From assembly GCA_965262935.1 (NCBI GenBank), contig OZ253572.1:6846445-6910444 (forward strand): a stretch of 64,000 nucleotides of DNA. Direction: 5' to 3'. Positions within the stretch are counted from its first letter, which is position 1. Each line of letters opens with the position of its first letter. This DNA comes from Spirochaetia bacterium. Its GTDB lineage: Bacteria; Spirochaetota; Spirochaetia; SZUA-6; Bin103. The position numbers and the translations under genes are program-made. Of the stretch, positions 28,288 to 62,236 are shown in pieces. The notes under the pieces were generated by a model. The model ran no database searches. It was given only the letters and a program-made list of their open reading frames with translations, and was not told the origin of the DNA.

Positions 28288-28377
28288 CCTACACCACGGA
28301 GCACACGGCGGCTACGGTGTACTCTGACGGCGGACTGCCTGGCGCATCAGCCATAGCAGCGGCTGGCGCCTCGGCGC

Positions 28378-31832: not shown

Positions 31833-31853
31833 CCTGCTTTCCCTCCACTGCGT

Positions 31854-32978: not shown

Positions 32979-33785
32979 GTGGTCATGGCAATGAAACTGA
33001 TAAGGGCGGCCTTCCTGCTGGCCGCCATCACCGTAGCAGGATGCTGGGCCGCCACCACCGCGACGGCCCAGCCGGTCGAGCAGCCGTCCCAGAGTTGCAC
33101 CGTCCGGCAGCCCGACCCCACCTTCACGACCATCGAGACGGAGAACGCGCTGACGCGCCCGCACCGCGTGGTGGCGGTAGCGGACTGGAACGGAGATGGC
33201 CTCGACGACCTCGTGGCGTTCCCGTGGGTCGAGCACAGCAACGACCCCGCCGACCGCCATCAGACTGCCCCGCTCGCCATCTTGCTGGCTCAGCCGGACG
33301 CGACGTTCAGTCGGTTGCTGGCGCCGGGACTGACCGTCGAGGCGCGCGACCCGATCGTGCTGGTGGAAGACTTCAACCAAGATGGCACGCCCGACATGGC
33401 CGTCTTCGATGCCGGAGTCTACGCGACGGCTGAATCGACCGGCTACGGCAACCCACCGCAGCTCCTGTTGAGCAGACCTGACTTCACCCACGAGCTCTCC
33501 AGTGCGCTGGCCGACGCCGTCGCGGCCCACCGACACTCGCTCGGCCCCGACCTCCACCTCAAGAGCGCGACAATCGGAGACATCGAATGCGCCGACCTTG
33601 TGGTGTCGGGCTCCCGCCATGATTATCCTTTCGTCTACCGCCGCGTCGGCGACAGCTTCAAGCTGCAGGACCGTCCCCTCACGACCAACAACGGCTACGC
33701 CGCCGACGTCAACGGCGACGGTGCGGTCGACTTCGTGTCGCTGCCGGGCGGCACCGACGTCGAGGTGTTGCTGAACCGGCAGTAG
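32979..33785 (+). CDS. secreted FG-GAP/VCBS-repeat protein
   Basis: Signal peptide MVMAMKLIRAAFLLAAITVAGCWA; motifs DWNGDGLDDLV, DFNQDGTPDMAVFD, DVNGDGAVDFV. Confidence 0.7.
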   Translation: MVMAMKLIRAAFLLAAITVAGCWAATTATAQPVEQPSQSCTVRQPDPTFTTIETENALTRPHRVVAVADWNGDGLDDLVAFPWVEHSNDPADRHQTAPLAILLAQPDATFSRLLAPGLTVEARDPIVLVEDFNQDGTPDMAVFDAGVYATAESTGYGNPPQLLLSRPDFTHELSSALADAVAAHRHSLGPDLHLKSATIGDIECADLVVSGSRHDYPFVYRRVGDSFKLQDRPLTTNNGYAADVNGDGAVDFVSLPGGTDVEVLLNRQ

Positions 33786-33975
33786 CGGGCCAGCACGCAG
33801 AGCGTGTTGACGTTATTGACAGGGTGTGGAGAGATTGTACGTGCGTCCACGGTCGTTAGGGCATTTACGGCTGGGGCGTGGCCTTACTGAAGCTCGTCCA
33901 GACGCTCGTTGAGTAATCTGGCGAGCTCTTTACATTTCTGAGCCGCCACCTTCGCGGGCGGCCGTGTAGGTGTCT
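33587..33975. repeat. direct repeat B1 (3' end of the FG-GAP gene plus 190 bp downstream), duplicated at 61846..62236
   Basis: About 95% identity over ~390 bp. The second copy carries an extra A (CGCCAATGATTAT versus CGCCATGATTAT). Confidence 0.85.
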
Positions 33976-34039
33976 TGCCTGTTCGACTGCACCATTATTG
34001 GGCCTTTCCGCGTGCGGTTAGCCGCGCGCGGCGGGTTTG

Positions 34040-34290
34040 AGCTGGTCTATGTGGTCTTTTGTAAATTCTATAATGGTTTACTCGGTACCCCAATATCCGG
34101 TTATTGCTTCCGCAACCCCTTGATGGGCAGCCGATCATCGTTGATTCGCTTCCGTCTGGCGCCGTGACGTGCTCGGAGCCGGTCATCATGACCGTCGACG
34201 GCACCGAACGCAGCTCCGTCACCGCCGCGCCCACCTCCCTGACCTTCGCGCACACGACTCGGGACGCCGTCAAGACCGTAGGCCTGAGCG
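34040..34290. repeat. repeat element X, copy 2
   Basis: Homologous to 20330..20580; a degraded HNH N-terminal remnant (SCLFDCTII) spans its upstream junction. Confidence 0.7.
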
Positions 34291-34581
34291 TTACGACGGC
34301 GACGCTGAGTCAGAAGGCATCGCCCCAGTGCGGTTCCGGTCACGATTATTCCGAAGGTCCCGTTTACTTAGCGTTTCGTGCGGCTCTTCTGCTTTCCGCA
34401 GCCTCCGAATTCCGCGCTCATCAGCGCCCCATGAGTGTTTAATCAGCCCGCCGTCGCCGCGCCGCGCGTCGACACCCTGCGACGCCTCGAAAGCCGCCTA
34501 CAACCCGTCGGCCGTACCACGCTACGCGGGACCGACAAGCTGCGGCGTCGTATGTCTCCAGCTCACCAGTTCCGCTTGACG

Positions 34582-35607
34582 CTACGAATTCGTCACATCC
34601 TCGTCCGCAAGGTCCAGGGGAATACGGACTCGGTGAAACTCTGGAGCGTTGAGACTCCCCGAGGCAAATACCATTCCTCTCGCCGTGCCACCCGGTTTCC
34701 AATCCGGGTAGTCAAGTAGGACGTTCGATAACGTCACCTCTGTTGGACAATTCGTCTTCGGATCAAGAAAACCAGTCCCTTTGAGCTTCAACTCCCCGGT
34801 TGTACGCCCTGCGCCTGTACTGTCCCTACATGACTGAATGAGCCGAAAGTCAAAATACACTTGATCAGCATTATCCGTAGCAAAGCAATGAACTTCCCCT
34901 CTTACGCTACCGACGGTTTCGAATCCATTTTGCAGCAACAACTCTGTCACTGCATCACCTTCTTGGTCTCTAATCGACTCGAATATCTGTACCATAGAGA
35001 GTTTCATAGGCACACGTATTTCGCTCAGAAGATCATTCAGATCCTTCTTCAAGAGAACTCGATTGACGTCCGAGCACTCTTTCATCTCGCTGACCAACTC
35101 AGAAGCGAGCCCCTTTTCGTAGCTTTTCTGTTCGTAGAAGTCCGTATCTTGCGTAACAAAAAACACATCTCCTTCTTGGAGCAACTCGAGACAATGCGCC
35201 CAAATTACTCCGTCGCGGAACTCCTCCTTGGTCTTTGATGGCGGGATTCTCCTGATTATCTTTATCATCGAAGACCGAGCAACATCTACATTAAACTCAA
35301 CCTCACGGACTGGGACATCAAAATTTGACACGATGCGAGAGACCACTCCTCGGATGTCTTCTTCGAGCGGCAGCGTAAGACGCTGCAACTTGTGAAACAC
35401 CTGCAGCAGCTGTTTGTGGCTGTCTGCTGCTTGTTTTCTTAGCTTCAACAAGTGACCCGTCAGCCGCTCCTCTATTTCGAGTCTTACGATTTCCGGGACT
35501 ACGACAGTCGCCCCTTGTCTCAGGGCGAAGTGACGAACGGCGGCACCACTCCGTGATTGGAGACCCAATTGGGAAAACCACACATTTGAATCGAATAGTA
35601 TGAACAT
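34582..35607 (-). CDS. PIN-like domain protein (DUF4935-type) with a ~220-aa C-terminal extension
   Basis: N-terminal MFILFDSNVWFSQLG, with the first acidic residue of the PIN fold in the FDSN motif, then conserved acidic positions. Low GC. Confidence 0.55.
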   Translation of the reverse strand: MFILFDSNVWFSQLGLQSRSGAAVRHFALRQGATVVVPEIVRLEIEERLTGHLLKLRKQAADSHKQLLQVFHKLQRLTLPLEEDIRGVVSRIVSNFDVPVREVEFNVDVARSSMIKIIRRIPPSKTKEEFRDGVIWAHCLELLQEGDVFFVTQDTDFYEQKSYEKGLASELVSEMKECSDVNRVLLKKDLNDLLSEIRVPMKLSMVQIFESIRDQEGDAVTELLLQNGFETVGSVRGEVHCFATDNADQVYFDFRLIQSCRDSTGAGRTTGELKLKGTGFLDPKTNCPTEVTLSNVLLDYPDWKPGGTARGMVFASGSLNAPEFHRVRIPLDLADEDVTNS

Positions 35608-36532
35608 ATGAGTTTCACGGGCGCGACTAAGAGAGTTGTTCTCCGCCAAATCGGAGGGGGCACTTGCCATGGATAGGCAGTGTAGCAGTCAACGCGTAGG
35701 CGCGCTACCCTTTGGGGGGCGCGGGGGCGCGGATTCGGAAACGATGGAAACAAGCTGCCCGAGCGTAGCTTCGGAGTCGTCAGATCAGCTTCCCAATGCA
35801 GTCTCGCCGCGACGCTCCGGTAGCCGTTGCGAAGTTGTTCCACCGATCGCTACATTCGTGACGCGACACCGCGGCGCTCGTCGGTCTCCAACTCCGTCAA
35901 ACGCTGCAGCGTGACCCGTCCCACCTGACGCAAGACGTCGTCGTTGGCATGCTTCTCAGCTTGTTCCGGTCTACAATCCGGCGCCGACAATCCGGCGCCG
36001 TGGTGGACATTCAACGGACGATATGAGTATTGCTCCTATCATGGCATTAGGAATCGCAGCGACGGGTGGCCGGGGACGTTCCGGCACCTGTCCGGCTTGG
36101 AGGCCGGGGGTCACGCGCCGTCGGCTGGCGACGCGGGGACGTCGACCGATGGTTGGAGGCTCTGCCGAAGGCGTAGGCCGCCGTCGTGGGCGTGCCGGGA
36201 CCGGAGGGAAACCCCATCCGGCAACGCGGCAACCACCGAGTCGGCACGACAGTTATTCGCGGAAACAACCCAAAACCGCCAACAGGAAACTAGTGGGGAT
36301 CAAGCGATCACTGCCGGGTACTCATAACCGTTGGAGCGGAAGGCATGCTTAAGCTGTACTGGGGTGACGCCAAAGCCTGAGCGGGTTGGCGGCGGAGGGC
36401 TTCGAAGGAGAGGGCCAGCGGGCCGCCGCTGCGGGGGGAGCCGGGGGTGCCGGCTCAAGGACGGGGAGCCCGAGAAGCCGCGGTCCCGGAACTGCCACGA
36501 GCCGAGGCTTAGTCGACAGGGTGTTTTCATAC

Positions 36533-39500
36533 ATGGGCGCAAGGAATTACGATGACGGCGTGGCGCAGCCGTTTTTCGAACAACCGATCCTGAATTCGCC
36601 GTATGAATACCCGGCGCGGCACTGGGAACTGGACGAGGACCGGCAACCCACCAACCAGATCGTCGACCGTCGGCGTACCGTATCGTTCATCACGCCGATT
36701 CCCGCCGCCCGCAAGCAACGCGCGGCTCAGCGCGAGCTGGGTGTGGATGATGCCCGCGGCACGGCGGACGAGGACGGTCAGCAATACGAACTGATGAGGA
36801 TGATCGAGAGCGTGCGCCACAGCGTGAACGAGTGGCGCCGGCTGCCCCGAGCCCGGTGGCGGGTTACCGCGGAGACCGCCCGCCTGCTCCATCATTGGCG
36901 CCACCACCAGTTCAGCGACATCCGTCCATTCTTCTGCCAGGTCGAGGCGGTGGAGACCGTGATCTGGCTGACCGAGGTAGCCGCCAGCGCCGGACGCGAC
37001 GGGCGGCAGTTCGTCCAGCGGCTGCAGGAGGCGAACGACCAAGCCAACCCCGGCCTCCCGCGGCTGGCACTCAAACTCGCCACCGGCGCCGGCAAGACGA
37101 CGGTGATGGCGATGCTGATCGCGTGGCAGACGGTCAACGCGGTGCGCCATCCGGGCAGCCAGCGATTCACGCGCGGCTTCCTGGTAGTGACCCCCGGCCT
37201 GACGATCCGCGACCGGCTGCGCGTGCTGCAGCCCAACGACCCGGACAGCTACTACCAGAGCCGCGAACTGGTGCCGCGCGACATGCTCGGCGATCTGCAC
37301 CGCGCCAACATCGTCATCACCAACTACCACGCCTTCATGCCGCGTGAGACGCAGGACATCTCAAGCGGTGGACGCGCCCTGCTGCAGGGGCGCGGCCCGG
37401 AGCTGCACACGCTGGAGACCGAGGGCCAGGTGCTGCAGCGGGTCATGCCCGGCCTGATGGGCATGAAGAACATCATGGCATTCAACGACGAAGCCCATCA
37501 CTGCTACCGCGAGAAGCCCGCGCAGAAGAGCGACGAGGCCAGACTGACGGCAGACGACCGCCGGGAGGCCAAGAAGAACAGCGAAGCCGCTCGGGTATGG
37601 ATTTCCGGCCTCGAAGTGGTGCAGCGCAGGCTGAGTCTGAGCAGGGTGCTCGATCTTTCGGCCACGCCATTCTTCCTGCGCGGCTCCGGCTACGCGGAGG
37701 GCACGCTGTTCCCCTGGACAATGAGCGACTTCTCGCTGATGGACGCGATCGAGTGCGGCATCGTCAAGCTGCCGCGCGTGCCGGTGGCGGACAACATCCC
37801 CAGTGGCGAGATGCCCACGTTTCGGAACCTGTGGGAGCACATCGGCACGAAGATGCCACGAAAGGGGCGCGCCAAGTCCGCGCTGCTCGACCCGCTGAGC
37901 ATTCCCACACGGTTGAAGACCGCCCTCGAAGCGCTCTATGGCCACTACCAGAAGATCTTCGACCAGTGGCGCGAAACGGGCATTCAAGCGCCTCCGTGCT
38001 TCATCGTCGCGTGCAACAACACGGCCACCTCGAAACTGGTCTACGACTACATCTCCGGGTTTCATCGCCAACATGAGGACGGCTCCTCTTCGCTCGAGAA
38101 CGGAAGGCTGGAGTTGTTTCGGAACTTCGACGAATACGGCCACCCGCTCGCCAGACCGCACACCCTGCTGATCGACAGCGAGCAGCTCGACTCCGGGGAA
38201 GGACTCGGCCGGGACTTCCGGGTCGCCGCGAGCGACGAGATCGAGCGCTTCCGTCGCGAGATCGTCGCGCGCACCGGCGACCGCCGCCAGGCCGAAAGCC
38301 TCTCCGACCAGGACCTGTTGCGCGAAGTGATGAACACCGTCGGCGTCGCGGGCCGGCTCGGCGGCTCCACCCGCTGCGTGGTGTCGGTCTCGATGCTCAC
38401 CGAGGGCTGGGACGCGCGCACCGTCACCCACATCCTCGGAGTGCGCGCGTTCGGCACCCAGCTTCTGTGCGAGCAGGTGGTGGGCCGCGCTCTGCGCCGC
38501 CAGTCCTACGATCTGAACGAAGAGGGCCTGTTCAACGTCGAGTACGCGGACGTGCTCGGCATCCCGTTCGACTTCACCGCCCAGCCGGTCGCCGCCAGGC
38601 AGCCGAAGCCGCGCGAGACGGTACCGGTCCGGGCCATCACCCCGGATCGGGACGCCTGCGAGATTCGCTTTCCGCGCGTCCAGGGATACCGCGTGGAACT
38701 GCCGGAGGAACACGTCGACGCGAAGTTCGGCCAGGACTCGACCCTGGTCCTCACCCCGGACATCGTCGGCCCTTCCGTCACGCACAATGCCGGCATCATC
38801 GGCGAGGGCGTCGACCTGAACCTGATCCACCGCCGGGATCTGCGCCCTGCCACGCTGGTCTACCATCTCACCAAGACCCTGCTGGAGAAACACTGGCGCG
38901 CGCCCGATCAGGAGCCGAAGCTGCACCTGTTCGGTCAACTCAAGCGAGTCACCCGCCGCTGGCTGACCGATCACCTGGTCTGCAACGGTGGCACCTACCC
39001 CGCTCAACTCATGTACCAGGAGCTGGCCGACCAGGCGTGCACACGCATCACGCGCGGAATTGTGGCGCGGCATCTCGGGGAGCGCCCGGTCACCGCGGTG
39101 CTGGATCCCTACAACCCGACCGGCTCCACGATCCACGTCAACTTCACCACCTCGAAGCAGCCCCGCTGGCAAACCGACGCCCGCCTGTGCCACGTGAACT
39201 GGGTGGTCTGCGACAGCGAGTGGGAGGCGGAGTTCTGCCGCTTCGTCGAGTCGCAGCCGCAGGTCCACGCTTACGTGAAGAACCACGGCCTCGGGCTGGA
39301 GGTTCCCTACCGGTACGGCTCCGAGGCGCGCACCTACCTCCCCGACTTCATCGTGCTGGTGGACGATGGCCGCGGCGAGGATGATCTGCTCCACCTCGTG
39401 GTCGAGATCAAGGGCTACCGCCGCGAGGACGCCAAGGAAAAGAAGGCCACCATGGACACCTACTGGGTGCCGGGCATCAACCGCTCCGGTGCCTACGGCC

Positions 39501-39607
39501 GCTGGGCCTTCGCAGAGTTCACCGACGTGTATACGATTGGCGACGAATTTGCCGCCGCGACCGGGCTCGTGAATGTCGATGCCGACAAGAAAAGGATTGC
39601 TGGATAG
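36533..39607 (+). CDS. res: type III restriction-modification restriction subunit (Res, SF2 helicase + endonuclease)
   Basis: N-terminal QPFFEQPILNSPYEYPARHWELD, a hallmark of type III Res. Walker A ATGAGKT, DEAH-box-like FNDEAHHCY, motif VI SMLTEGWDARTVTHILGVRAF. Confidence 0.9.
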   Translation: MGARNYDDGVAQPFFEQPILNSPYEYPARHWELDEDRQPTNQIVDRRRTVSFITPIPAARKQRAAQRELGVDDARGTADEDGQQYELMRMIESVRHSVNEWRRLPRARWRVTAETARLLHHWRHHQFSDIRPFFCQVEAVETVIWLTEVAASAGRDGRQFVQRLQEANDQANPGLPRLALKLATGAGKTTVMAMLIAWQTVNAVRHPGSQRFTRGFLVVTPGLTIRDRLRVLQPNDPDSYYQSRELVPRDMLGDLHRANIVITNYHAFMPRETQDISSGGRALLQGRGPELHTLETEGQVLQRVMPGLMGMKNIMAFNDEAHHCYREKPAQKSDEARLTADDRREAKKNSEAARVWISGLEVVQRRLSLSRVLDLSATPFFLRGSGYAEGTLFPWTMSDFSLMDAIECGIVKLPRVPVADNIPSGEMPTFRNLWEHIGTKMPRKGRAKSALLDPLSIPTRLKTALEALYGHYQKIFDQWRETGIQAPPCFIVACNNTATSKLVYDYISGFHRQHEDGSSSLENGRLELFRNFDEYGHPLARPHTLLIDSEQLDSGEGLGRDFRVAASDEIERFRREIVARTGDRRQAESLSDQDLLREVMNTVGVAGRLGGSTRCVVSVSMLTEGWDARTVTHILGVRAFGTQLLCEQVVGRALRRQSYDLNEEGLFNVEYADVLGIPFDFTAQPVAARQPKPRETVPVRAITPDRDACEIRFPRVQGYRVELPEEHVDAKFGQDSTLVLTPDIVGPSVTHNAGIIGEGVDLNLIHRRDLRPATLVYHLTKTLLEKHWRAPDQEPKLHLFGQLKRVTRRWLTDHLVCNGGTYPAQLMYQELADQACTRITRGIVARHLGERPVTAVLDPYNPTGSTIHVNFTTSKQPRWQTDARLCHVNWVVCDSEWEAEFCRFVESQPQVHAYVKNHGLGLEVPYRYGSEARTYLPDFIVLVDDGRGEDDLLHLVVEIKGYRREDAKEKKATMDTYWVPGINRSGAYGRWAFAEFTDVYTIGDEFAAATGLVNVDADKKRIAG

Positions 39608-42574: not shown

Positions 42575-42827
42575 CGACACGGATGTCGTCACAGTCAGCG
42601 CTTGCCGGATCGCTACAAACAAGGCGCACCTCTGACGGACCGAGTCCGGCGCAATCTTGTCTACGCGTAGTGCCGGGATTCCCAATCCCGCTCGGAAGTG
42701 CAAGGTGTGGCGACTCGGGGCGTCTCATGCCCGTGCCAGCGGTGCAGGTGCGTTCCGATACGGTCGAGCTGACGGGTCAGCGCACATTGTTGCAATTGTC
42801 TGCCACTTAATCGATCTCAGAAAGGCT

Positions 42828-43341: not shown

Positions 43342-43347
43342 TGGCAC

Positions 43348-45185: not shown

Positions 45186-45197
45186 AGTGTTCTCCGT

Positions 45198-49545: not shown

Positions 49546-50240
49546 AATGGCGCCCGGCTGTTGCCGAGCGCGCGGTCGTCCAATTCATACGCATATCTAA
49601 CATGCGGATGATTACAATACCCTTCACAACTAGATGCCAAGTTGATCACAATCGTGGTGAAGGACTGAATTGATAACCTCAACCATGTTATTCCTCCGGG
49701 AATGACGTTGGAGCGACGCTTACCTATCCCCTTGGCATTTAGGTATAGGGACTCTTGCGATGGTCAAATTGGGTTACTTATAATACAGTTGTTGATGGTG
49801 GCGGAGCTGCTCCACCACCAACGGGAGGCCGATCTACCGGAGCCGGCCTATCCATGAAGCTAATAGGAACGGCTCCTATGGTACTTGCGCTTATCGTTCT
49901 GGTAGTACTGATCACAGGATTGATCTGGCTCGAATACCGGGTATGGCGCGGCGTCCTCTTAGGGAAGTGGGAAAGAAAGAGGAGCGTGTGTGCGCGCCGC
50001 CGCCCATGACGCCTCCGACAGCGGCTGGCGACCGGCGCCCGCATCGTACGCCTCAATACCCGGCGCATCCGCCACGTGCAGCCGCAACCGCGGCTGCCGA
50101 GTGGCTGCATCTGGGCGGTGGCGGTCACAGCGACTCGCGCACCGGCGTCGCGCGGATCCAACGGCCCGGATTCGCTGCGACATCCTCCCCGCGGTGCAGC
50201 ATCCGCACCACCACGCCGCCCCGCGCCGCAGCCGGGCCGC

Positions 50241-51192
50241 TCACGTTGCCGTCGGCGGCGGCACCTTCATCGCCACCGCGCCGCTTCCCTCATCCCCGCG
50301 GTCGGCGGCCGGCGCCTCCGGGTCGAGTACCGCCAGGTCGGCGTCGCAGCCCGGGTGGAGGCGCCCCTTCGCCGGCAGGCCCAGGAGCCGCGCCGGCTGC
50401 CAGCACAGCAGGGCCGCCAGCTCCTCCAGCGTGATGTGCCCCGGTGCGACCCCCGCCCGCCACAGGCGCGCCAGGAACTGGCGGTCCGCGGCGCCCTCCT
50501 CGGGCCCGAGGCTCACCATGCGCACCGTCCAGGAGCGCACCGCCGGCCAGCACTCCGCGGCAGCGGGCGGCTCGGCGAGCAGCAGGTGCGCCGGCGCATG
50601 CCGGCCGCATCGGCGGGAGCCAGCACCACCCGGCCGCCGTCGAGCGGCAGCGGCAGCCCGCCGACGCTGCGCTCCATGACGCGCGCGTCGTCGCTGAGCA
50701 CCACCAGGGTCGCCCCGCAGTGGCCGGTCACCCGCACCAGGTCGTCGTCCCAGCCCGGCTCCGTCAGTATGCGGTCGTCGACCGCGAACGCCGCGCATCC
50801 CCGCCCGAACACCGCCTCCGGCAGCACTTCGAGCTCCGGCTCCAGCCCCCGCAGCAGCGGAATCGGCACCGCATCCGCCGCGTACGCCGCATCGGTGTCG
50901 GGCTCGGCGTACCCCGGCCTCGGGGCAGGCGCGGCGAGACTCGCAACCGGCACGCCCACCGTGGTGGCCGGGCAGCCGCCGCGCCCGGCCAGCGGCATGC
51001 CGGAACGGCACAGCAACACCGGGCCGGGAAACACCAGCTTGCCGGTCAGATCACGCCACCCCGCCCCCTCGGCCGCATCCGAGCGCGCCATGCGCAGCGC
51101 GCGCACCACCCCGCCGCCCATCTCCAGTCGGCCACGAACCGCCCGTCGGCATGCACCACCAGCCCCTGATACAGCGTGCCACCCATCGCCGC
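50241..51192 (-). pseudogene. amidohydrolase (dihydroorotase-like) repeat copy B, frameshifted
   Basis: Two overlapping ORFs (50241..51011 and 50513..51337) together reproduce copy A, e.g. MGGTLYQGLVVHADGRFVAD and GRLHPGCDADLAVLDPEA, at about 90% nucleotide identity but in different frames. Confidence 0.65.
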
Positions 51193-51961: not shown

Positions 51962-52019
51962 GGAAAGCATCAGCGATGGCACCGTGATAGTGTCGTCGCG
52001 TGGAACCCGGTGTGGTGTG

Positions 52020-53168: not shown

Positions 53169-53560
53169 TCAGCAGGCGGGCGACAGCGGTCGCGGCCTCG
53201 TGGCCGTGTCGCATTCCCTTACACCTTCCAGGGTGACAGTAGACCAGCCCCGCACCCTGGTCAGGTTGGCCCCAATCAGCATCGCTTCGTTTAGATTGGC
53301 ACCGGTCAGGTCCGCGCCGGTTAGATCCGCACCGCCAAGGTTAACACCACTAAAGTCGGCATCGCGCAGGATTGCGTTGCTCAAATCCGCCCTTACAAAA
53401 CCGGAGAACTGCAACTTCGCGCCGGTCAGGTCGGCAAAGCTCAGGAACGCTCGGTCCCCGTACACACGCAACGTGGCGTAGCGCAGCTGCGCGCCATTCA
53501 GATGCGCCCCGGTCAGGTCTGCAAACATCAGGGTTGCGCCGCTCAAGCCCGCCTCGAATA
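53169..53560 (-). pseudogene. secreted pentapeptide-repeat protein paralogue 3, N-terminally truncated
   Basis: Pentapeptide repeats and C-terminal VRGWSTVTLEGVRECDTATRPRPLSPAC. The N-terminal side is replaced at ~53560 by a 150-bp amidohydrolase fragment. Confidence 0.55.
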
Positions 53561-53561
53561 G

Positions 53562-53710
53562 GTGCCGTCGTCGACCGCGAACGCCGCGCAGCCCTGCCCG
53601 AACACCGCCTCCGGCAGCACTTCCAGCTCCGGCTCCAGCCCCCGCAGCAGCGGAATCGGCACCGCATCCGCGGCGTACGCCGCACCGGCGAGCGCCGCAT
53701 CGGCGTCGGG
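53562..53710. repeat. amidohydrolase repeat fragment C (about 150 bp matching 19617..19745 and 50800..50950)
   Basis: Near-identical run GTCGTCGACCGCGAACGCCGCGCAGCC..TGCCCGAACACCGCCTCCGGCAGCACTTCCAGCTCCGGCTCCAGCCCCCGCA. Confidence 0.8.
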
Positions 53711-53732
53711 TCGACACCGTAAGCGTGTCGTG

Positions 53733-54488
53733 TTACTTCCTCCGAACGAGTGTCCCGTCGTTGCTCAGAATTCCTAACTCAAAACATCCCCCGCTGATCA
53801 CGTCATCGATATACTCGGCTGCTACCTTGAACGCAATCCTGAAAAACTCTCGGTCGTCCCTGACACGATAATGAATGAGACGTCGGTGAACGGCCCTCTC
53901 CGCCTCTCTTGGATTACGAACACGCCAGCAGCGTCGCACACCGAACGGCACTACTACGCCCGTTGCGCCATTGATTTCACGAGCTCGCTGACCGACATCA
54001 CGAGTTGTCATTCCGATCTTCAATAGATCGGGAATATCTCTTGTCGACAGCACATATATCCATCCAGAGTTGGACGCTGTCAACAGGCTCACCTTTCCAA
54101 GAAATATTGACAGACAATCCAGAGCCCCCATCATACTCAGGCGCGTGCAAGTGCGCGCAGCTTCCTCTTCATCCGAGGAATGTAGGGCTTTGCGGAGTAG
54201 TCCGAGATCCTGTGCGATCAACTTCGATAAACGCCGAGGGGGATATCCGAGCTGTGCAGAAACTGTAAACCAGTCCCATTGATCCTCTTGATGAACGCGA
54301 TTGAACATTCCTTTGACGATGCTCAGAGACCCCAAGCTATGCGTGTCACGGCCTGAAAAATCACCTATTTGAAGCATCTTCATAACCTGTTGACTAGCGT
54401 CCTTGCGTATCCTGTTCGTATGTGGCTTAGGCGGTGCCATTCCAAAGCCCCACTTCTCGGACACCTTACCGACGTTATTGCTCAACAC
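53733..54488 (-). CDS. GIY-YIG superfamily nuclease of the T5orf172 (Mug113-like) type with an unknown N-terminal domain
   Basis: GWIYVLSTRDIPDLLKIGMTTRDVGQRAREINGATGVVVPFGVRRCWRVRNPREAERAVHRRLIHYRVRDDREFF matches the T5orf172 signature. Low GC. Confidence 0.7.
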   Translation of the reverse strand: MLSNNVGKVSEKWGFGMAPPKPHTNRIRKDASQQVMKMLQIGDFSGRDTHSLGSLSIVKGMFNRVHQEDQWDWFTVSAQLGYPPRRLSKLIAQDLGLLRKALHSSDEEEAARTCTRLSMMGALDCLSIFLGKVSLLTASNSGWIYVLSTRDIPDLLKIGMTTRDVGQRAREINGATGVVVPFGVRRCWRVRNPREAERAVHRRLIHYRVRDDREFFRIAFKVAAEYIDDVISGGCFELGILSNDGTLVRRK

Positions 54489-54513
54489 GCGCCTATGCGC
54501 TCACTAACATCGT

Positions 54514-56484
54514 TCAACTGCGGACAAGCCGTTCGTTGACCTCGCTGCATATCCGCTGGAAGCGGTCCAGAATGGCCGGCGGCACCGTCACCTCGCCAAC
54601 CCTCTCTGCCAAGTAGCGAGCCGGGCGATAGTGATTAAAAGTGACTCCCTTTCTAAGGGGGTGCTCGACGAAATACTCCTTGAGGCGGACGGTGATCCGG
54701 GAATGCTTGCTCTTTAGGTCTTTCTCCTCAATTGGCTCACCAAGTGCCGCGGCGTACTCGGAATTGACAAGCTCGAGATAAAACTCTGTTCCGATTACGT
54801 CCTCAACGTCTGCCTCACTAGCTTCAACGAAGTCTGCATAGGTGAGCACCTGTTTCTTCTTAATGAGCTTGCGCCGCCACATGTTTTCAATCGCCTGACG
54901 GTCCTTCTCTTGAAAGTCGATCAGTGTAGCAACATTCATCTGCGTTTGCACACCCAGCAAGGCAACGAATGTAGGGACTTTATCTGATCCACCAACAGGA
55001 GTGATTGTCCATCCGGAACTGAGACCTTCTCGGCCCTCCGCTTGCAATACGCTTGTCATCACTTGGAGGTAGAGCAGGTCGGACACACCCTCCACAATGA
55101 GACTGTTTGGGCCAACGAAGAGCGTCTGCGCAATGTCGTAGCCGAGCGCTCCCTGCAGCGGGAACAGGCTGTCATCGGAGGTCGCCAGCACATCGACCGT
55201 TACCTTGGTGCCTGCGTCTCTATCCGCAACCTCTTCGTCAGCATCGATGCTTCGATCTTGAACGATCCGAACGCGGTCGAATCGCGCCGGATCGACCATG
55301 AAGGGCGAGTGTGTCGAGTAGATTAACTGATGATTTGGTACCAGCTCCTCTTCGAAATACGTGAGAAGGTCGCCCTGAGCCTTTCCGTGCAGTGATAAGC
55401 CAGGCTCGTCCAGCAGGATGATCACGTTCTGTTTATCACGCTGCACATCGCCGTACCAAGCAAGGAACGAGAAGAACCACACGAACCCATGAGAGCGCGT
55501 GCCAAGCTCCGTTGTCACCATGTGCAACGGGTCGTAGACCTCGGCCCAGATATTCGTACCGTTCTGCATCCCTGGCGGATCCTCTGGCTGCGCAGGGCGC
55601 ACGTCGAAGCGCATCTGGAGGTTTTTGTTCTGGGACCAGTACTTGACGATACTCTTGGTGAGGTGGTTCCCGGCGCCCTCAAGCTTGTTCTTGAGATCGC
55701 GAGTGCGCCCCGGCGTGAGAAGACTGTCGAGATCGAGGCGAGCCTTGCGGATCAAGCCGAGCATCGGGTGGTCCGGCTTCTCAAGCATCTCGTCTGCAAC
55801 CCGTTGCTGGAGCGCGTCGATATTGTCGCAACCCCGCATCTGGTAATACTCGTCGAAGTACATAAATCTCGGAACCCTGGAGCTGAGGATCTCGTCGCAG
55901 ATGTAGTCTGTGATCGAACCAGCGGAGACGATATCGTTCAACCACTCCGTGATGCTTTGGATCGCCGCTGTTTGTTCTAGATCAGTTACGATCTCCTTGG
56001 CCTCATCAGGTGTAGAACAGGACTCTAGTGCCTTACGGATCTCTTCCGGAACGGAGTAACCTGACAGTATGTGGTGCAGGGCTGCCTTATGGTCAACCGG
56101 AACAGAAAACGTGAAAGTGTCCTGTTCGTATGCTTTAGAAATCGTGATTTCTCTAGAGGCTAACGCCTTCGGACCAAAGACCTGTGCGATGGCGCCCGCG
56201 TCATCGTCGTCGAGCTCATATGTGAGCTGAGCAACCACGGCATGCTCGCGCTCTTTCTCTTCGATTGCGTGCTCGTAATCGGCAACGTCACCACGAGGGT
56301 AGTCGTCCGTGACGCTGTAGCCGACGTCGGTGTCGACGATCGGAAGGAGTCTATACATAGCCTGAAGGAGTGCCGTCTTACCTGCTTCATTCTTACCGAC
56401 GAGACAAGTGACATCTCCGACATTGAACTCGGTGGAATCGCGGACACTCTGGAAATCGGTGACGCGAACTTTCGTTAACTTCAT
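54514..56484 (-). CDS. OLD-family ATP-dependent nuclease (N-terminal ABC-type ATPase + C-terminal TOPRIM)
   Basis: Walker A VGKNEAGKTALLQA, Walker B/D-loop ILLDEPGLSLHGKAQ, TOPRIM LIVEGVSDLLYL. Length is 656 aa. It sits 25 nt upstream of the T5orf172 gene on the same strand. Confidence 0.8.
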   Translation of the reverse strand: MKLTKVRVTDFQSVRDSTEFNVGDVTCLVGKNEAGKTALLQAMYRLLPIVDTDVGYSVTDDYPRGDVADYEHAIEEKEREHAVVAQLTYELDDDDAGAIAQVFGPKALASREITISKAYEQDTFTFSVPVDHKAALHHILSGYSVPEEIRKALESCSTPDEAKEIVTDLEQTAAIQSITEWLNDIVSAGSITDYICDEILSSRVPRFMYFDEYYQMRGCDNIDALQQRVADEMLEKPDHPMLGLIRKARLDLDSLLTPGRTRDLKNKLEGAGNHLTKSIVKYWSQNKNLQMRFDVRPAQPEDPPGMQNGTNIWAEVYDPLHMVTTELGTRSHGFVWFFSFLAWYGDVQRDKQNVIILLDEPGLSLHGKAQGDLLTYFEEELVPNHQLIYSTHSPFMVDPARFDRVRIVQDRSIDADEEVADRDAGTKVTVDVLATSDDSLFPLQGALGYDIAQTLFVGPNSLIVEGVSDLLYLQVMTSVLQAEGREGLSSGWTITPVGGSDKVPTFVALLGVQTQMNVATLIDFQEKDRQAIENMWRRKLIKKKQVLTYADFVEASEADVEDVIGTEFYLELVNSEYAAALGEPIEEKDLKSKHSRITVRLKEYFVEHPLRKGVTFNHYRPARYLAERVGEVTVPPAILDRFQRICSEVNERLVRS

Positions 56485-57506
56485 GAGTTAACCTCCACTA
56501 TTTCGTACTTCCTCGGTCGCAATGTTCCACCTAGCGTTATCTCAGATCGTTCCGGTCGCGGCAGTATCGAAAGCGTTGCGTCACCGGAGAGCGGAGCGTT
56601 GCGATGAACGTCTTGGCACCCAGTCACCTGTACCGGCGCGCTCGACGGCACGGGACGAGTGTCCGCCGGTCGCACCGTCCGGTGAGTTATCGGGCTCCGT
56701 GGCCAACTCGATACTGGACTTCGTCATCTTGGCGGCCGGCACGGAGCACCGTCAAGCCAATCCGCCAACACCACACGAAGAGCACCGACAAGAGGGGCTC
56801 CCAACAGAGAGGCCTGATCCGGCGCGTTCCAGAGTGCTGCATCCATAAGGGCTTTTGAACATAGGACCACGCAAACCGTATCAACTGCTGTCTACGCATA
56901 CAACCTCTGTCGGTGCTTTTGTGCCTATGGAGAGCGGGTCGGCGCGACGGACAACGGCCGTCAAGTGGCCCCAAGCGAGGCCGCGGTCGGGGCTCCGGGC
57001 CGGCTTGGCCAGCTCATGCCGAGCTGTGCGCGGGGTCGCCGGTCGCCATCACCGTCGCCAGGAGAGCCGCATGCCTCAGGTGCACAGGTATCCCTTTCTG
57101 ACCTACTCGCTCCGGGCCGGGTAGCTCCTATACTCACCCATCCGTTCAAGAACGGACTCTTTGGGCCGAGTGGCGGTGGTGGCGTCCGGGACTCCCTGTG
57201 GGCGGTCCGCGCGGGGGATTCTGGTAGCGGGACGACTGCCAGCGGGCAAGCGGTGCAATCTCCGGTTGTCGTCAAAACACGGCGTCCTCCTCGGGCGCTG
57301 ACCCTGGCGGCAACCCTACGCCTCCCCGTGGCGGTGGATTCCAGGCGACAGAAACCGCCTTCACGGACGTTACCGGACGTGGCCGGCCGACACGACGACG
57401 CTACCAGCCTGAGCGAGGCCGCGCGCTTGCACTTGAGCGCTGCTTGAATCGCCTCGGCAAGTTCGCTATCCATTCCTGGTTTCTCCTTAAGGTGTATAGT
57501 TGGTGT

Positions 57507-57710
57507 ATGGCACGCACCAATATCGATATCGACGACGAGGCTTGCGTGGCGATCATGCGACGTTACCGGCTGGTTTCCAAGCGGGCGGCGGTCAACCTCG
57601 CGCTGCGTACGCTGGCGGCTGGCCCCCTAAGCCTGGCGGCCGCCCGGTGCCTGCGCGGATCGGGCTGGAAAGGCGATTTGGAGGAGATGCGCGGCAGCAG
57701 AGGAACGTGA
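57507..57710 (+). CDS. vapB: VapB-type antitoxin (MRTTLDIDD-family)
   Basis: MARTNIDIDDEACVAIMRRY is the typical start of this antitoxin family. AAGGTG SD-like motif upstream. Confidence 0.6.
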   Translation: MARTNIDIDDEACVAIMRRYRLVSKRAAVNLALRTLAAGPLSLAAARCLRGSGWKGDLEEMRGSRGT

Positions 57711-58093
57711 TCCTGATCGACACCTCGGCATGGGTGGAGTTCCTCCGCGACACCGGGTCGGACGTCAGTGCGCGGGTCGACGCTGAGATGGGCGGCGAGA
57801 TCGTGATCTGCGACGCCATCCATATGGAAGTACTCACTGGCGCGCGAGACGAGAGCCACCTTGAAGCGCTACGAGGACTGCTCGCGCGTGCGAGCGTGCT
57901 ACCCACCGAACCCACGCACTATGACGAGGCGGCGACGCTGTACCGCCGCTGCCGCCGTGAAGGCGAGACGGTGCGGCGGCTGATCGACTGCCTGATCGCC
58001 GCCGTCGCGATCGGTGCCGGCGTACCGGTGCTGCATCGCGACGACGACTTCGACGTGTTAGCTCGTCATACCGAACTCGATATCGTCCGGTGA
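57707..58093 (+). CDS. vapC: VapC PIN-domain toxin
   Basis: VILIDTSAWVEF (first catalytic Asp), further conserved acidic residues, C-terminal CLIAAVAIGAGVPVLHRDDDF. The GTG start overlaps the vapB stop (GTGA). Confidence 0.75.
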   Translation: MILIDTSAWVEFLRDTGSDVSARVDAEMGGEIVICDAIHMEVLTGARDESHLEALRGLLARASVLPTEPTHYDEAATLYRRCRREGETVRRLIDCLIAAVAIGAGVPVLHRDDDFDVLARHTELDIVR

Positions 58094-58506
58094 CGGATCG
58101 CCTGCAGCGGAGCGTTCCCAGGGCGCGACAGAAGGCGGCTTACCGGACGCTGGCCCGACGTTCGCCCGCTCCGTAGAATTGAGCGGGGGGTAGGGTGGGG
58201 TGCTGGCGATCCCTGGGCGGGTCTGCTGGCCATTCGTCATAGGGCCCGCAGCGTACCCGAGCGCTGCTAGCGCAAACCGGGTGGAGCACCCCTGGAACCC
58301 TTGACCCAGCAATGCAATGGCGGTAGCCTTGATGCCCTGAAACCGACCAAGGAACAACCCCGCCAGAAGCCGCCGCGGCCCGAGCCGAACCGGCGGGACC
58401 CCTGGGAGCAGTCCCTAGACATCGATCCAGAGCTGCTCGCCAAGGCAGTGCTCACCCCTCGGAAGCCGATCCGAAAGAGCTGACGACCGCACGACGGTAG
58501 GTAAGC

Positions 58507-58821
58507 ATGTTCTGGCGCTTTCTCCGTGACCTGTTCAAGCTCCAGGTGAACAGCCACTTCGTTTCGTTTGTTGTGGTTGCAGTGGCCATGTGGATCGCAC
58601 CAGATACCACTGGAGTCGTTCGCTTTCTGTTGGCCATCATTCTGAGCGCGAGAGGCTACTGGAACTTGATCTGGATGGTGTATATGATGCGCTACTTCTC
58701 GACACACCCAGAGAAAGATACACTCCAAGAGCTCCATACTACCGTTGGTGCGGCAACGGTACGAGTGATAGAGTCGATGGTGCTATTCGATTTCATTTTC
58801 GATCTCTACTTCCCTGAATAA
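58507..58821 (+). CDS. hypothetical small membrane protein (104 aa), low-GC
   Basis: Two to three hydrophobic helices (FVSFVVVAVAMWIAP, FLLAIILSARGYWNLIWMVYMM). Confidence 0.4.
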   Translation: MFWRFLRDLFKLQVNSHFVSFVVVAVAMWIAPDTTGVVRFLLAIILSARGYWNLIWMVYMMRYFSTHPEKDTLQELHTTVGAATVRVIESMVLFDFIFDLYFPE

Positions 58822-59414
58822 GGAACCCATTACCCGATCCGTCGTGCTCGCGCGGGCCATGCTATGGTGGTCGCATCCTTCCAGATAGCTCCCGGCAAAG
58901 CCGGCAGGAGTCTGGTTACTATCCTGGGTAGTTCCCCCAGCGCGGGATTGACACAACGCTTTACCGGAGCTCACCAAGACCCTCCGCCTGCGCCCTATGA
59001 GGCCCGGCGCGATCGCCCGGATCGACCGCGCCCAAGAGGAGCCCGGCACGTACGCCGAGATGAGACCCGCGAGCAAGAACTTCGTAACCGTCCGTCAGAC
59101 CGTGCGTATCGAGGCGCGCTGTCCGGTCGCTGGCGTCCGGCTGGTGAACGGCGGCCCATCGAACCCCGGCGACGGCTGCAGGCAAGGGAGTGTCCCGTCG
59201 ACTGCGCGTTCACGGAGGACGAGGTCGATGCGCTCGTTGCGCGGTGCGAGTCGGTAGAACAGGCGATCCGAGAGCACGCGGTGCCGGCGGGCTGTCGTCA
59301 GCACCCTCGTTTTGCCGTTCCAATGTCCCTGCACATCCACCCCGCGGCGGTGCTGATGCTTTGCGCTCCCAGCGAACTCGGACACCTCGGTGACGAGCAA
59401 CTGCGGCAGGCTAA

Positions 59415-60722
59415 GGGCTCTCGCCAAAATAATATGTTCTTTAGGTGAAGTGTGATATAGTGACGCTTCGTGATGGATGTCGCCCTGACCGAAACCGTCA
59501 AGGCCAAGTTCGTTGCCCTTGACCCGTTGTTCGACGAACGCTTGCGACGCCGCTGGGCGGCAGTCGAAGCACGCGGTATCGGGCGTGGCGGGATAGCCCG
59601 CGTAGCCGCAGCCACCGGTATGTCGCGGACGACCATTCGCGCCGGTCTGAAAGAGCTCGCTGCCAAGCAAGCGGCAGAGGCAGAACCCGAGACAGTGCGC
59701 GTGCGCCGGCCGGGGGCGGGACGCAAGCGATTGACCGCGCACGACCGGACCCTGGCGCAAGCGCTGGAGCGGTTGGTCGATCCGGTCACCCGCGGCGATC
59801 CGATGGGGCCGTTGCTGTGGACCTGCAGCAGCGCGGCGCGGTTGGCGACGGAACTGACGGCGGTCGGTCACGCGGTGAGCGAACGGACGGTGAACCGACT
59901 GTTACACGAGTTGGGCTACAGCCTGCAAGCCAACCGCAAGACGCTGGAAGGCAAGCAGCATGCGGACCGCGACGAGCAGTTCAAACGCATCAACCGGCGG
60001 GTGCGAGCGTTTCAGCGTCTGGGGCAGCCGGTAGTGTCTGTGGACACAAAGAAAAAGGAGTTGATCGGGCAATTTCGCAACGGCGGTCGAGAGTGGCGTC
60101 CGCAGGGCGACCCGGAGCGGGTCAAGGTGCACGATTTCATCGACCGGGAACTCGGCAAGGCGATTCCGTATGGGGTCTATGACGTGACCCGTGACAGCGG
60201 CTGGGTGAGTGTGGGGGAGGATCATGACACGCCGGCGTTCGCGGTGGAGACGCTGCGGAGGTGGTGGCGCCGGATGGGCAGGGCGGCGTATCCGGCGGCC
60301 AAGCGGCTGCTGATCACGGCCGACGGGGGTGGTTCCAACAGCAGTCGCAGTCGGCTGTGGAAGGCGGAGTTGCAGAAGTTCGCGGACGCGAGCGGGCTGT
60401 GCATCTCGGTGTGTCACTTTCCGCCGGGGACGAGCAAGTGGAACAAGATCGAGCACCGGATGTTCTGCCACATCGCGGAGAACTGGAGAGGGCGGCCGTT
60501 GGTGAGTCGAGAGGCGGTGGTGAATTTGATCGGGCACACGACGACGACAGAAGGATTGACGATCCGCTCGGAGTTGGACGAGAACAGCTATCCGACGGGA
60601 CAAACGGTGAGCGACGAGGAGATGGACAGGCTGAACCTGACGAGGGACAAATTTCACGGGGAATGGAACTACAAACTGACCCCGCGACACCGGTAACAGA
60701 CAGTTTATTTTGGCGAGACGCC
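59415..60722 (+). mobile_element. ISAzo13-family insertion sequence (about 1.3 kb) with terminal inverted repeats
   Basis: IRL GGCTCTCGCCAAAATAA at 59415..59431 and IRR TTATTTTGGCGAGACGCC at 60705..60722 (16/17 matching after reverse complement). A single transposase ORF lies inside. TAA flanks both ends, a possible 3-bp target duplication. Confidence 0.75.
59470..60696 (+). CDS. ISAzo13-family (Rhodopirellula-type DDE) transposase
   Basis: Full-length 408-aa ORF with the family-typical segments VSVDTKKKELIG, ITADGGGSN, HFPPGTSKWNKIEHRMF. Confidence 0.85.
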   Translation: MMDVALTETVKAKFVALDPLFDERLRRRWAAVEARGIGRGGIARVAAATGMSRTTIRAGLKELAAKQAAEAEPETVRVRRPGAGRKRLTAHDRTLAQALERLVDPVTRGDPMGPLLWTCSSAARLATELTAVGHAVSERTVNRLLHELGYSLQANRKTLEGKQHADRDEQFKRINRRVRAFQRLGQPVVSVDTKKKELIGQFRNGGREWRPQGDPERVKVHDFIDRELGKAIPYGVYDVTRDSGWVSVGEDHDTPAFAVETLRRWWRRMGRAAYPAAKRLLITADGGGSNSSRSRLWKAELQKFADASGLCISVCHFPPGTSKWNKIEHRMFCHIAENWRGRPLVSREAVVNLIGHTTTTEGLTIRSELDENSYPTGQTVSDEEMDRLNLTRDKFHGEWNYKLTPRHR

Positions 60723-61343
60723 TAACCTCGCGGGACCTGTTCGGACGCCGTCACACTGTCGACACCAGCCACAATCCGGTGTGGCGCGCGTGCACACAAT
60801 CCGAAGCCCGACCGCAGTCGGCTCTCGGCTTCGGTGTGCGCGCTGTAGGACACCGGTCGGCCAGAGCGACGACGCGAGTGGTTTCGCCGACCTCCCTCCA
60901 GCGGCGCACCAGAAGAACCGGCGTATGTGATCGAGCGAATGAGTTGCTCTGCCCCGTGCGCTTCAACCCCACAGGCGCCGCTGCGGCCCCTGCGTAGCCC
61001 TCTTGCCACCCCGCGCCAGCACACCACCGCCCGGTGCGGAAGCCCCCTGACGGGCGTCGCAACCGGCCTCCTGCTCAATCCGCACCGCCCGCGCGGCCCC
61101 GACTCACGCCCCATCAGCAGGCAGCCGGCGCCCCCTCAAGTAGACGGCACCGATTCCAGTTGAGCTCCCGCTAGCGCGCCACGACCGTCGTTCTCCTTCG
61201 GACATCCTTGCGACAGATCGATAAGCCGTGGGATCCTATAGCTACGATGCAACTGTCGAATCAAGGCTTGATCGAGACGGGTTGACCAAGTCGAATCTTA
61301 GCGCCAAGAATGAAACGCAACTGAGGAGGTTCGGAGCCATACA

Positions 61344-61850
61344 ATGCCAAAATCACCCACCGGCGGCACCCGTGCCATATTGAACATTCCAAGAGCCGAG
61401 AAGCTAAGACGTTTGTCTGCAATGGACGAGAGCGAATTTCGTGACCGCATAGTTCGTCCTCTATTCTTTGCGCGAGGATACAAAGACGGTCGCGATTTGC
61501 ACGGAACCCATGATGAAGGTAAGGACATTCTCTTCGAAGAGAACGATAAACTCGGCGAAATGAAGATTATATGTGTGCAAACTAAGAAGGGCAATATCAA
61601 CCTTTCTGCTGCACCCGCCCGGAACATCGAGACCGCAATAACCCAGCTACGTACAGCGTTGAATAGCCGCATCACGCGCCTTGAGGACCGGCAAAGATAC
61701 TACCCCGATGACGTCTTTCTCTGCGCGAGTGGAAAAATCAACACTCCTGCTCGAAATCATATTGCTGAGGAAGGATGGGCGATCAGTCGGCCACCCACAT
61801 CCAGGTGGGTCTTGCCGGCGGGCCCCAGATGGTCAAGTTTGACCGCGACG
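61344..61850 (+). pseudogene. Mrr-cat/restriction-endonuclease-like domain gene, 3'-truncated at the repeat B2 junction
   Basis: FRDRIVRPLFFARGYKDGRDLHGTHDEGKDILFEE ... ICVQTKK resembles the PD-(D/E)xK core of Mrr-cat (D...D/E.K). The reading frame runs into the duplicated FG-GAP 3' end. Confidence 0.4.
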
Positions 61851-62236
61851 AATGCGCCGACCTTGTGGTGTCGGGCTCCCGCCAATGATTATCCGTTCGC
61901 CTACCGCCGCGTCGGCGACGGCTTCAAGCTCCAGGACCGCCCCCTCACGACCAACAACGGCTACGCCGCAGACGTCAACGGCGACGGTGCGGTCGACTTC
62001 GTGTCGCTGCCGGGCGGCACCGACGTCGAGGTGTTGCTGAACCGGCAGTAGCGGGCCAGCACGCACAGCGTGTTGACGTTATTGACAGGGTGTGGAGAGA
62101 TTGTACGTGCGTCCACGGTCGCTAGGGCATTTACGGCTGGGGCGTGGCCTCACTGGAGTTCGTGCAGACGCTCGTTGAGTAGTCTGGCGAGCTCTTTACA
62201 TTTCTGAGCCGCCACATTCGCGGCGGCCATGTAGGT
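61846..62236. repeat. direct repeat B2 (degraded duplicate of the FG-GAP gene 3' end plus downstream region)
   Basis: See 33587..33975. It includes a 1-nt insertion that breaks the frame. Confidence 0.85.

Follow-up and report, generated by a model that had tools for sequence, protein, structure and literature searches.

How did the end of one gene come to stand on both sides of a block of defence genes, and does this arrangement record the integration of a mobile element? The question is raised by a 64,000-nucleotide (nt) stretch of the chromosome of Spirochaetia bacterium (contig OZ253572.1, positions 6,846,445 to 6,910,444, forward strand), hereafter the window. Here the 3' end of a gene for an FG-GAP protein, together with the sequence downstream of it, recurs about 28 kb away. 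The first-pass annotation described a direct repeat of ~390 bp in two copies, at 33587-33975 and 61846-62236, and took it for the mark of a site-specific integration into that gene end. The repeat is real, with coordinates that had to be corrected by 3-11 nt. It is not limited to two copies, as a third begins at 63830 and runs across the window end. The first two copies, B1 and B2, belong with the third, B3, to a family of at least three partial 3' ends of a seven-blade FG-GAP gene. We consider it probable that these repeats are scars of homologous or unequal exchange and of microhomology-mediated joining in a plastic defence island.

Related contigs (L numbers) were viewed with flanks of at most 10 kb, and homologous proteins are given P numbers. 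The features that bear directly on the repeat are listed here (ORF, open reading frame; aa, amino acids; GC, guanine-plus-cytosine fraction; D, the sequence downstream of the gene end).

32979..33785, plus strand: FG-GAP1, a 268-aa ORF with a probable ATG at 32985 (266 aa); Pfam FG-GAP_3, E = 2.8e-11
33584..33586, plus strand: deletion junction within FG-GAP1, which is the left edge of B1; CGA, a 3-nt microhomology (breakpoints against L006)
33584..33982, plus strand: B1, repeat copy 1; the last 67 codons of FG-GAP1 and 197 nt downstream (D)
33978..34290, plus strand: X2, a copy of X1 joined to D via the 6-nt overlap GCCTGT; right breakpoint of B1
20320..20578, plus strand: X1, a source-like copy of the sequence abutting the right side of B1 (BLAST against X2)
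61344..61772, plus strand: 3'-truncated Mrr_cat-like gene fused to B2; Pfam Mrr_cat, GC 0.50
61773..62247, plus strand: B2, a 5'-truncated, frameshifted FG-GAP 3' fragment and 197 nt downstream (D); 61849-62247 of it corresponds to B1
62131..62925, minus strand: low-GC segment right of B2 with 75-aa and 168-aa ORFs, GC 0.48; the 75-aa ORF enters D
63830..64000, plus strand: B3, a third 5'-truncated FG-GAP copy (C-terminal 234 codons), continuing off the window to ~64547

Junctions of the FG-GAP gene-end copies

B1 (33584-33982) and the corresponding part of B2 (61849-62247) were 95.75% identical over 400 columns with 2 gaps (MAFFT; repeat finder family D4; self-BLAST, E = 0.0), a similarity far above chance expectation. 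They lie in direct orientation and bracket the block with the FG-GAP gene end, as a duplicated attachment (att) site would. A 41-mer taken from the invariant portion of the repeat had no exact match in the JGI (Joint Genome Institute) metagenome contigs. The junctions are genuine and not assembly artefacts, given their recurrence in independent metagenome assemblies: the context of B1 was seen again in L011, L012 and L013, that of B2 and B3 in L007, L008 and L009, and the linkage of the restriction-modification (R-M) genes inside the block to the second amidohydrolase copy (A2, below) in L019, an independent assembly.

The product of FG-GAP1 begins with a lipoprotein-type signal ending in ...TVAGC (by inspection). 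It is 100% identical to P0001, encoded on a 7.0-Mb contig (protein search); exact-protein look-ups with the 268-aa and 266-aa products gave no match. A 97%-identical homologue, P0002, is encoded on L006 and is full-length at 462 aa, and the protein search also gave a series of truncated or chimeric FG-GAP variants. A genome-contig search with the FG-GAP protein gave only distant homologues (26-35% identity) and no species-level reference free of the island.

Comparison with L006 located the left edge of B1. L006 8346-10602 corresponds to window 31326-33586 and L006 11188-11403 to window 33584-33799, and FG-GAP1 lacks L006 10603-11187, a 588-bp, 196-codon in-frame internal deletion. The deletion joins blade 3 (GDI/DQDGD) to blade 6 (FDRD/ECADL) of the seven-blade protein, and FG-GAP1 retains 4 of the 7 blades. 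Copy 1 had been taken to complete an intact secreted FG-GAP gene, a view that the comparison with P0002 contradicts. The deletion is present in the window, L011 and L012, and absent in L006 and L019. Because L019 is undeleted yet already carries A2 and the second unit of the locus (unit 2, below), the deletion is unrelated to the 28-kb block. It arose later and separately, once the block was in place.

Other structural variants of the FG-GAP gene were seen among the relatives. A second in-frame deletion, GPDL/PGEPF, different from that of the window, occurs in L010, L013 and L014. That both independent deletions are in frame may indicate that the protein tolerates a shortened propeller, or that selection maintains the reading frame as far as the 3' end. 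FG-GAP truncations end at the equivalent of 33259 in L013 and L014 (also P0004 and P0009) and at that of 33417 in L011 and L012 (also P0007), and in L018 a deletion runs from mid-gene into the slot between FG-GAP and the R-M genes. Upstream, an 830-bp segment (32173-33002) directly before the FG-GAP start is absent from L010, and ~175 nt (32688-32861) are duplicated in L018 (2236-2412 and 9519-9692), beside a chimeric integrase/DUF2806 ORF. A scan for promoters and terminators around B1 gave nothing above chance.

At its right edge, past GCCTGT, B1 runs on as TCGACTGCACC..., the start of X2. The 16-mer CCTGTTCRACTRCACC occurs at both 20320 and 33978, where 0.05 matches are expected by chance, and X1 20343-20578 is 83% identical to X2 34053-34290 in a BLAST match that begins 70 nt past the end of B1. 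The shared 16-mer and the alignment identify the right junction of B1 as D joined to X1-like sequence via the 6-nt overlap. X1 itself lies upstream of an amidohydrolase gene and is preceded by a fragment (20150-20335; translation ...GFSSLFNYT), which we take to resemble the N-terminus of HNH/DUF222-type proteins.

The homology of B2 to the full FG-GAP gene reaches 76 nt further left than that of B1, to 61773 (L006 11112-11405 equals window 61773-62067 at 96.6% identity), and there B2 is joined to another gene. The fused Mrr_cat-like ORF (61344-62051, 235 aa) matches Pfam Mrr_cat with E = 3e-5, and its homologues P0097 (241 aa) and P0098 (156 aa) run on past the junction, beyond ...HIAEE. Thus copy 2 is indeed fused to a truncated Mrr_cat-like gene, as the first-pass annotation had it, and the 1-nt insertion reported there was likewise recovered, as an extra A at 61884/61885 in the MAFFT alignment of the pair and in a five-way alignment. 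The same fusion is found in L007, L008 and L009. B2 is 3-4% diverged from every other copy, frameshifted, and forms a high-GC islet amid low-GC DNA; it is presumably a non-functional remnant. Neither the 75-aa nor the 168-aa ORF to its right had a Pfam match, and the 168-aa ORF was found only on L007, L008 and L009. A putative 69-aa minus-strand gene over the right edge of B2, rebuilt by correcting a 1-nt insertion or deletion, had no homologue among 5.8 billion proteins, and the derived change behind it sits in B1, not in B2.

L007 matches window 56170-64000 at 99.96% identity and reaches 2.1 kb beyond, so that B3 could be followed past the window end. Window 63830-64000 equals L006 10688-10858 at 99.4% identity, and the whole copy (L007 7664-8381) equals L006 10688-11405 at 99.2%, comprising the C-terminal 234 codons with no internal deletion. 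Its similarity extends to 62141 in B2 and to 33875 in B1, and on its left it adjoins a minus-strand ORF fragment without annotation. Between this left junction and a 51-aa ORF stand ~9.6 perfect tandem copies of the 19-nt unit GGGAAGGGGGTAGGGTCCA (63219-63400); the copy number appears to differ in L008 and L009.

Aligned together, the copies have no common boundary. All three left ends differ: 33584 in B1 (the deletion junction), 61773 in B2 and 63830 in B3. The right ends are nested in the five-way alignment, in that all copies and those of L006 and L010 agree up to +16 after the stop codon, B1, B2 and B3 to about +88, and B1 and B2 alone to +197, where they end in ...GCCTGT. The first-pass annotation had proposed a search for an att-like core at the breakpoints. 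With the exact junctions aligned, no such core with one fixed boundary is common to B1, B2, B3 and the relatives' copies.

The double module and its counterparts in relatives

The copies lie within a larger repeated order of genes. A module consisting of an amidohydrolase gene (minus strand), variable toxin-antitoxin (TA) and defence cargo, FG-GAP (plus strand) and a type III R-M system occurs twice, in direct order. Its parts in the window are as follows (IS, insertion sequence).

18910..20034, minus strand: A1, amidohydrolase gene, 373 aa, left anchor of unit 1; Pfam Amidohydro_1/3
31401..32399, minus strand: HicB/HicA TA pair upstream of FG-GAP; Pfam HicB_lk_antitox and HicA_toxin
34582..35670, minus strand: PIN_12 gene in the variable slot between FG-GAP and R-M; Pfam E = 1.8e-14, GC 0.50
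36386-39607 (res) and 39608-42574 (mod), plus strand: type III R-M; Pfam ResIII, RE_endonuc and N6_N4_Mtase, PADLOC MTase_III
50125..51189, minus strand: A2, frameshifted amidohydrolase pseudogene split over two frames, left anchor of unit 2
57380..58137, plus strand: VapBC pair of unit 2, 98% to L006 1066-1822 and 4616-5423; Pfam on L007 and L008
59189-59297: orf348 remnant, matching L006 orf348
59415..60721, plus strand: ISAzo13-family IS, a recent insertion; transposase 59470-60696, Pfam DDE_Tnp_ISAZ013 E = 7e-145

The markers are repeated in the same order and orientation and at similar spacings, of 31.2 kb from A1 to A2, 28.3 kb from B1 to B2 and ~30.7 kb from B1 to B3. Unit 1 (~18.9-42.6 kb) is orthologous to the one unit visible in each of L010, L006, L018 and L019. 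Unit 2 runs from ~50.1 kb to beyond 64.5 kb, and its FG-GAP gene consists of two 5'-truncated pieces, B2 and B3. Each interior is an allelic version of the locus in other strains: that of unit 1 (a 260-aa gene and HicB) matches L010, and that of unit 2 (VapBC and the orf348 remnant) matches the amidohydrolase-FG-GAP interval of L006. Unit 2 is a decayed second version, with A2 frameshifted, FG-GAP reduced to remnants, R-M genes fragmentary and an IS inserted.

A1 is 95.6% identical to the amidohydrolase gene of L006 and 90% to that of L010. A2 is 85% identical to A1 with 74 gap positions (self-BLAST) and 96% identical to L006 143-751. A third amidohydrolase fragment (53546-53690), 92-95% identical to A1 and A2, lies within the 5' part of a pentapeptide-repeat ORF (53169-53717, minus strand). 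The first-pass annotation had described the order A1, B1, A2, B2 as an interleaving produced by successive insertions or rearrangements. Several rearrangements are indeed indicated; nested insertions are not, because A followed by B, twice, is a collinear order.

The adjacency of FG-GAP and R-M is conserved. The res and mod genes are 97-99.5% identical and syntenic downstream of FG-GAP in L006, L010, L011, L018 and L019, and HicB adjoins FG-GAP in L006, L010, L018 and L019. On L010 (a 469-kb contig) the order is FtsK, BacA, GidB, amidohydrolase, a 176-aa gene, the 260-aa gene, HicB, FG-GAP, slot, res and mod; relative to it, unit 1 of the window has a 9.6-kb insertion at 20144-29750. On L006 the order is amidohydrolase, VapBC, BrnA, HSDR_N, VapBC, orf348, HicB, FG-GAP, slot, res and mod. 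The VapBC copies of L006 thus sit between amidohydrolase and FG-GAP, and together with its orf348 they match the window only in the A2-B2 interval. The comparison with relatives, for which the first-pass annotation had suggested island-free ones, gave FG-GAP followed by res/mod in the five contigs L006, L010, L011, L018 and L019, and no relative that joins FG-GAP to 62248 onward (10-kb flanks).

L019 and L014 bear on the second unit. L019 is collinear with window 31579-33586, continues with the FG-GAP middle that the window gene has lost, the gene end and ~100 nt, and then enters window 36526-55190 directly, at 99.5% identity over 18.7 kb. This stretch includes the CBASS-like genes, the IS1595-like ORF, A2 and the OLD/T5orf172 pair (all below). 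L019, as an independent assembly, thereby confirms that unit 1 is linked to unit 2. L014 has the same res and mod genes and, 4.4 kb on, a VapC joined to another 5'-truncated FG-GAP copy, whose 3' end and D sequence differ from those of B1 and B2 by ~10%. Hence the presence of a second FG-GAP copy beyond the R-M genes is an old and shared feature.

The two units would derive from tandem reiteration, or from the stacking of two alleles of one locus. Where diverged versions of one locus meet, homologous or unequal exchange could reiterate the module, and microhomology-mediated illegitimate joining and deletion could then trim the copies, with the 3-nt CGA and the 6-nt GCCTGT as candidate traces. 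No site-specific recombinase would be implicated in the origin of the repeat. The sequence item ALTERNATIVES accompanies this general-recombination interpretation. Both the order of events and the mechanism by which the repeats formed are proposed here from the comparison of extant sequences.

Several observations weigh against an origin by exchange between versions of one locus. Outside the anchors, no DNA or protein similarity between units 1 and 2 was detected, generic pentapeptide repeats excepted; whole units do not resemble each other, and the anchor genes alone match. The R-M genes after B3 (L008 and L009) are a different type III system, with a methyltransferase (Mtase) 27% identical to that of unit 1 and a res fragment without a match. 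No unambiguous single-unit, empty-state relative was found among those viewed (10-kb flanks), and the ancestral layout is a reconstruction. The geometry would also fit an integration event, as copy 1 continues to the left into the gene and copy 2 is flanked by foreign DNA on its left and different DNA on its right, and the search for recombinase genes (below) covered block ORFs from ~100 aa upward. A simple recent tandem duplication is ruled out by the unrelated unit interiors and the 27%-identical second Mtase. If the module was reiterated, the reiteration must therefore be old or of two divergent alleles.

Other possible origins of the repeat

Among the alternatives, serial accretion anchored in homology survives best, as a possibility that we regard as doubtful. 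Circular or transduced pieces carrying an FG-GAP 3' fragment would have entered by RecA-type single crossover in the manner of a Campbell insertion, each event adding cargo and leaving a 5'-truncated remnant, first B3 and then B2, with no integrase. The nested breakpoints (B3 right at +88, B2 left at 61773, B1 right at +197) fit two successive events of this kind, and the left junction of each remnant is an arbitrary join with a truncated gene, as expected at the point where a circle closed. Furthermore, defence or R-M genes come after the remnants, and L014 has another remnant past its R-M genes. However, neither a donor nor a circle nor an empty site was seen. The cargo of this model would include the R-M genes that are conserved beside FG-GAP as well as a copy (A2) of the upstream anchor, for which a reiterated locus is the simpler account, and on present data accretion is indistinguishable from unequal crossover. 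It is likewise rather unlikely that the FG-GAP end and the first ~90-200 downstream nt serve as a homology landing pad for serial single-crossover capture of defence cargo. If they did, the locus would be an accretion array that grew without an integrase, recognisable by its 5'-truncated remnants (B2, B3 and the one in L014).

Site-specific integration, the explanation put forward in the first-pass annotation, holds that an island of ~28 kb entered the FG-GAP 3' end, bringing a replacement gene end, with B1 and B2 as attL and attR. Gene 3' ends are known targets of this kind, as lambdoid phage 21 and e14 integrate at icd. In its favour, the block is rich in low-GC defence genes and has a direct repeat of a gene 3' end on either side; copy 1 is continuous with the gene body, foreign DNA lies to the left of copy 2, and a divergence of 4-5% is compatible with a gene-end mimic borne by an element. 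The details of the junctions argue otherwise. A secondary deletion inside the gene sets the left edge of the repeat. B2, B3 and the relatives' copies all begin at different points on the left, and the right edges are nested, which leaves no common core. The junction partners are truncated genes joined at microhomologies of 3-6 nt, and the res and mod genes at the supposed island start are conserved neighbours of FG-GAP in five relatives.

Nor did the scanned ORFs of the block give a candidate recombinase. No Phage_integrase, Resolvase, Recombinase or rve domain was found in 30 ORFs of 105-1073 aa between 33983 and 61848 (Pfam), shorter ORFs being outside the scan. The only mobile-element genes among the scanned ORFs were the IS1595-like ORF and the ISAzo13 transposase. 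The integrase-like ORF of L018 was rejected as a lead, being a chimeric fragment without a counterpart in the window; tblastn with this fragment gave no significant match.

In known systems the boundaries are of another kind. The tandem ssrA islands of Dehalococcoides, an accretion array, have short (20-bp) repeats with a fixed boundary and integrase modules beside attL (PMC3146451), and PAISt lies at the bacA 3' end, its target being described as an 8-bp palindrome (PMC4057263). As in the ssrA, PAISt and icd elements, direct repeats of a gene 3' end here bracket accessory, partly low-GC genes, with several copies downstream. In contrast to them, the copies are 400-720 bp long, vary at both ends and have junctions that cut other genes. 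Those elements have empty sites and an integrase beside attL, whereas the present block starts with the conserved neighbours of the target gene and no integrase domain was found among its scanned ORFs. We therefore regard site-specific integration as improbable.

It is highly unlikely that the truncated copies serve as silent cassettes that donate sequence to the expressed FG-GAP lipoprotein gene by gene conversion. Neisseria pilS loci are silent, 5'-truncated, promoterless partial copies with a shared 3' flank near the expression locus (pilE). Similarly, promoterless 5'-truncated copies lie here downstream of an expressed-looking copy, the 3' flank is shared, and the encoded protein is probably surface-exposed. 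The copies are, however, 95-99% identical with scattered point changes and no hypervariable segments, and B2 is frameshifted. Unlike pilS, they have no variable minicassettes and no sign of conversion, and the variants in the population are deletions and truncations rather than cassette mosaics.

A single 30-kb insertion that split one FG-GAP gene (N-terminal part to 33586, middle from 63830) was also considered. It would make res and mod part of the insert, and it was rejected because these genes follow an unsplit FG-GAP in L006 and L019. Finally, mis-joined reads from related strains, conceivable for a metagenome-derived chromosome in a structurally heterogeneous population, are hardly credible as the source of the repeat, since the B1, B2/B3 and R-M-to-A2 joins recur in independent samples and assemblies.

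Defence cargo and comparison with known systems

The region is a defence island, a very plastic chromosomal hotspot for defence and TA genes. Defence genes were called with PADLOC and Pfam, and those of the window not listed above, together with the second mobile-element ORF, are these (CBASS, cyclic-oligonucleotide-based antiphage signalling system).

2488-5350: Helicase and DUF2290 pair, low GC of ~0.50; PADLOC E = 7e-299 and 5e-89
24401-25396: Mrr (Pfam/PADLOC)
44001-46163, minus strand: CBASS-like cyclase and patatin effector (PADLOC/Pfam)
46418-47272: IS1595-like ORF with a transposase zinc-ribbon domain only (Pfam)
53733-56484, minus strand: OLD/AriA-like ATPase and T5orf172 (PDC-S57) (PADLOC/Pfam)

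The cargo is rich in defence and TA genes and varies among close relatives between conserved flanks. In the window the interval from amidohydrolase to FG-GAP measures 12.9 kb, against 9.3 kb in L006 and 2.7 kb in L010, and the slot from FG-GAP to res 2.6 kb, against ~1 kb in L006 and L010 and 0.18 kb in L019. The ISAzo13 element is absent from L008, in which 59414 is joined to 60722. It interrupts a 251-aa ORF that is intact in L008, and the empty site shows an overlap of 4 nt.

Some further features lie near the module. The Helicase and DUF2290 pair is close to a tRNA-Met gene (6780-6853), the only tRNA of the window; an Rfam search of the window gave this tRNA-Met (6780) only. About 1 kb of 21-, 42- and 63-nt tandem repeats (14823-15801) separates BacA (13476-14303, minus strand) from GidB (16006-16695, minus strand). 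The array is shorter in L010, and the ORFs overlapping it had no Pfam match. Past the window end, L009 (5554-8021) carries a group II intron reverse transcriptase (RVT_1 and GIIM) in the fragmentary second R-M system downstream of B3.

Tandem segmental duplication, or merodiploid stacking of alleles, followed by pseudogenisation, is part of general bacterial genome dynamics. The present locus resembles such cases in that marker order and orientation are kept, the spacing is 28-31 kb and one copy is decaying through frameshifts, truncations and an IS. It differs from a simple recent duplication in its unrelated unit interiors and in its differing downstream R-M systems. For the core defence hotspots cDHS1 and cDHS2 of P. 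aeruginosa, exchange via homologous recombination in the conserved flanks has been proposed (PMC10250203). Like these, the locus has conserved flanks (amidohydrolase, FG-GAP and res/mod), variable defence and TA cargo and no obvious mobile-element scars. Unlike them, its anchors are reiterated and eroded, with two amidohydrolases and a fragment as well as three FG-GAP ends, and two versions of the hotspot are stacked in tandem.

The locus is a further instance of known genome dynamics, and not of a new mobile element or mechanism. A long gene-end repeat around low-GC defence genes can mimic an att duplication, and this case guards against over-interpretation of such repeats. It was the comparison with related assemblies that exposed the repeat edges as scars of a secondary deletion and of illegitimate joins. 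The locus is a clear natural example of how a hotspot is remodelled, its anchors being reiterated, eroded and fused to incoming genes, and many structural variants of it coexist in one environmental population.

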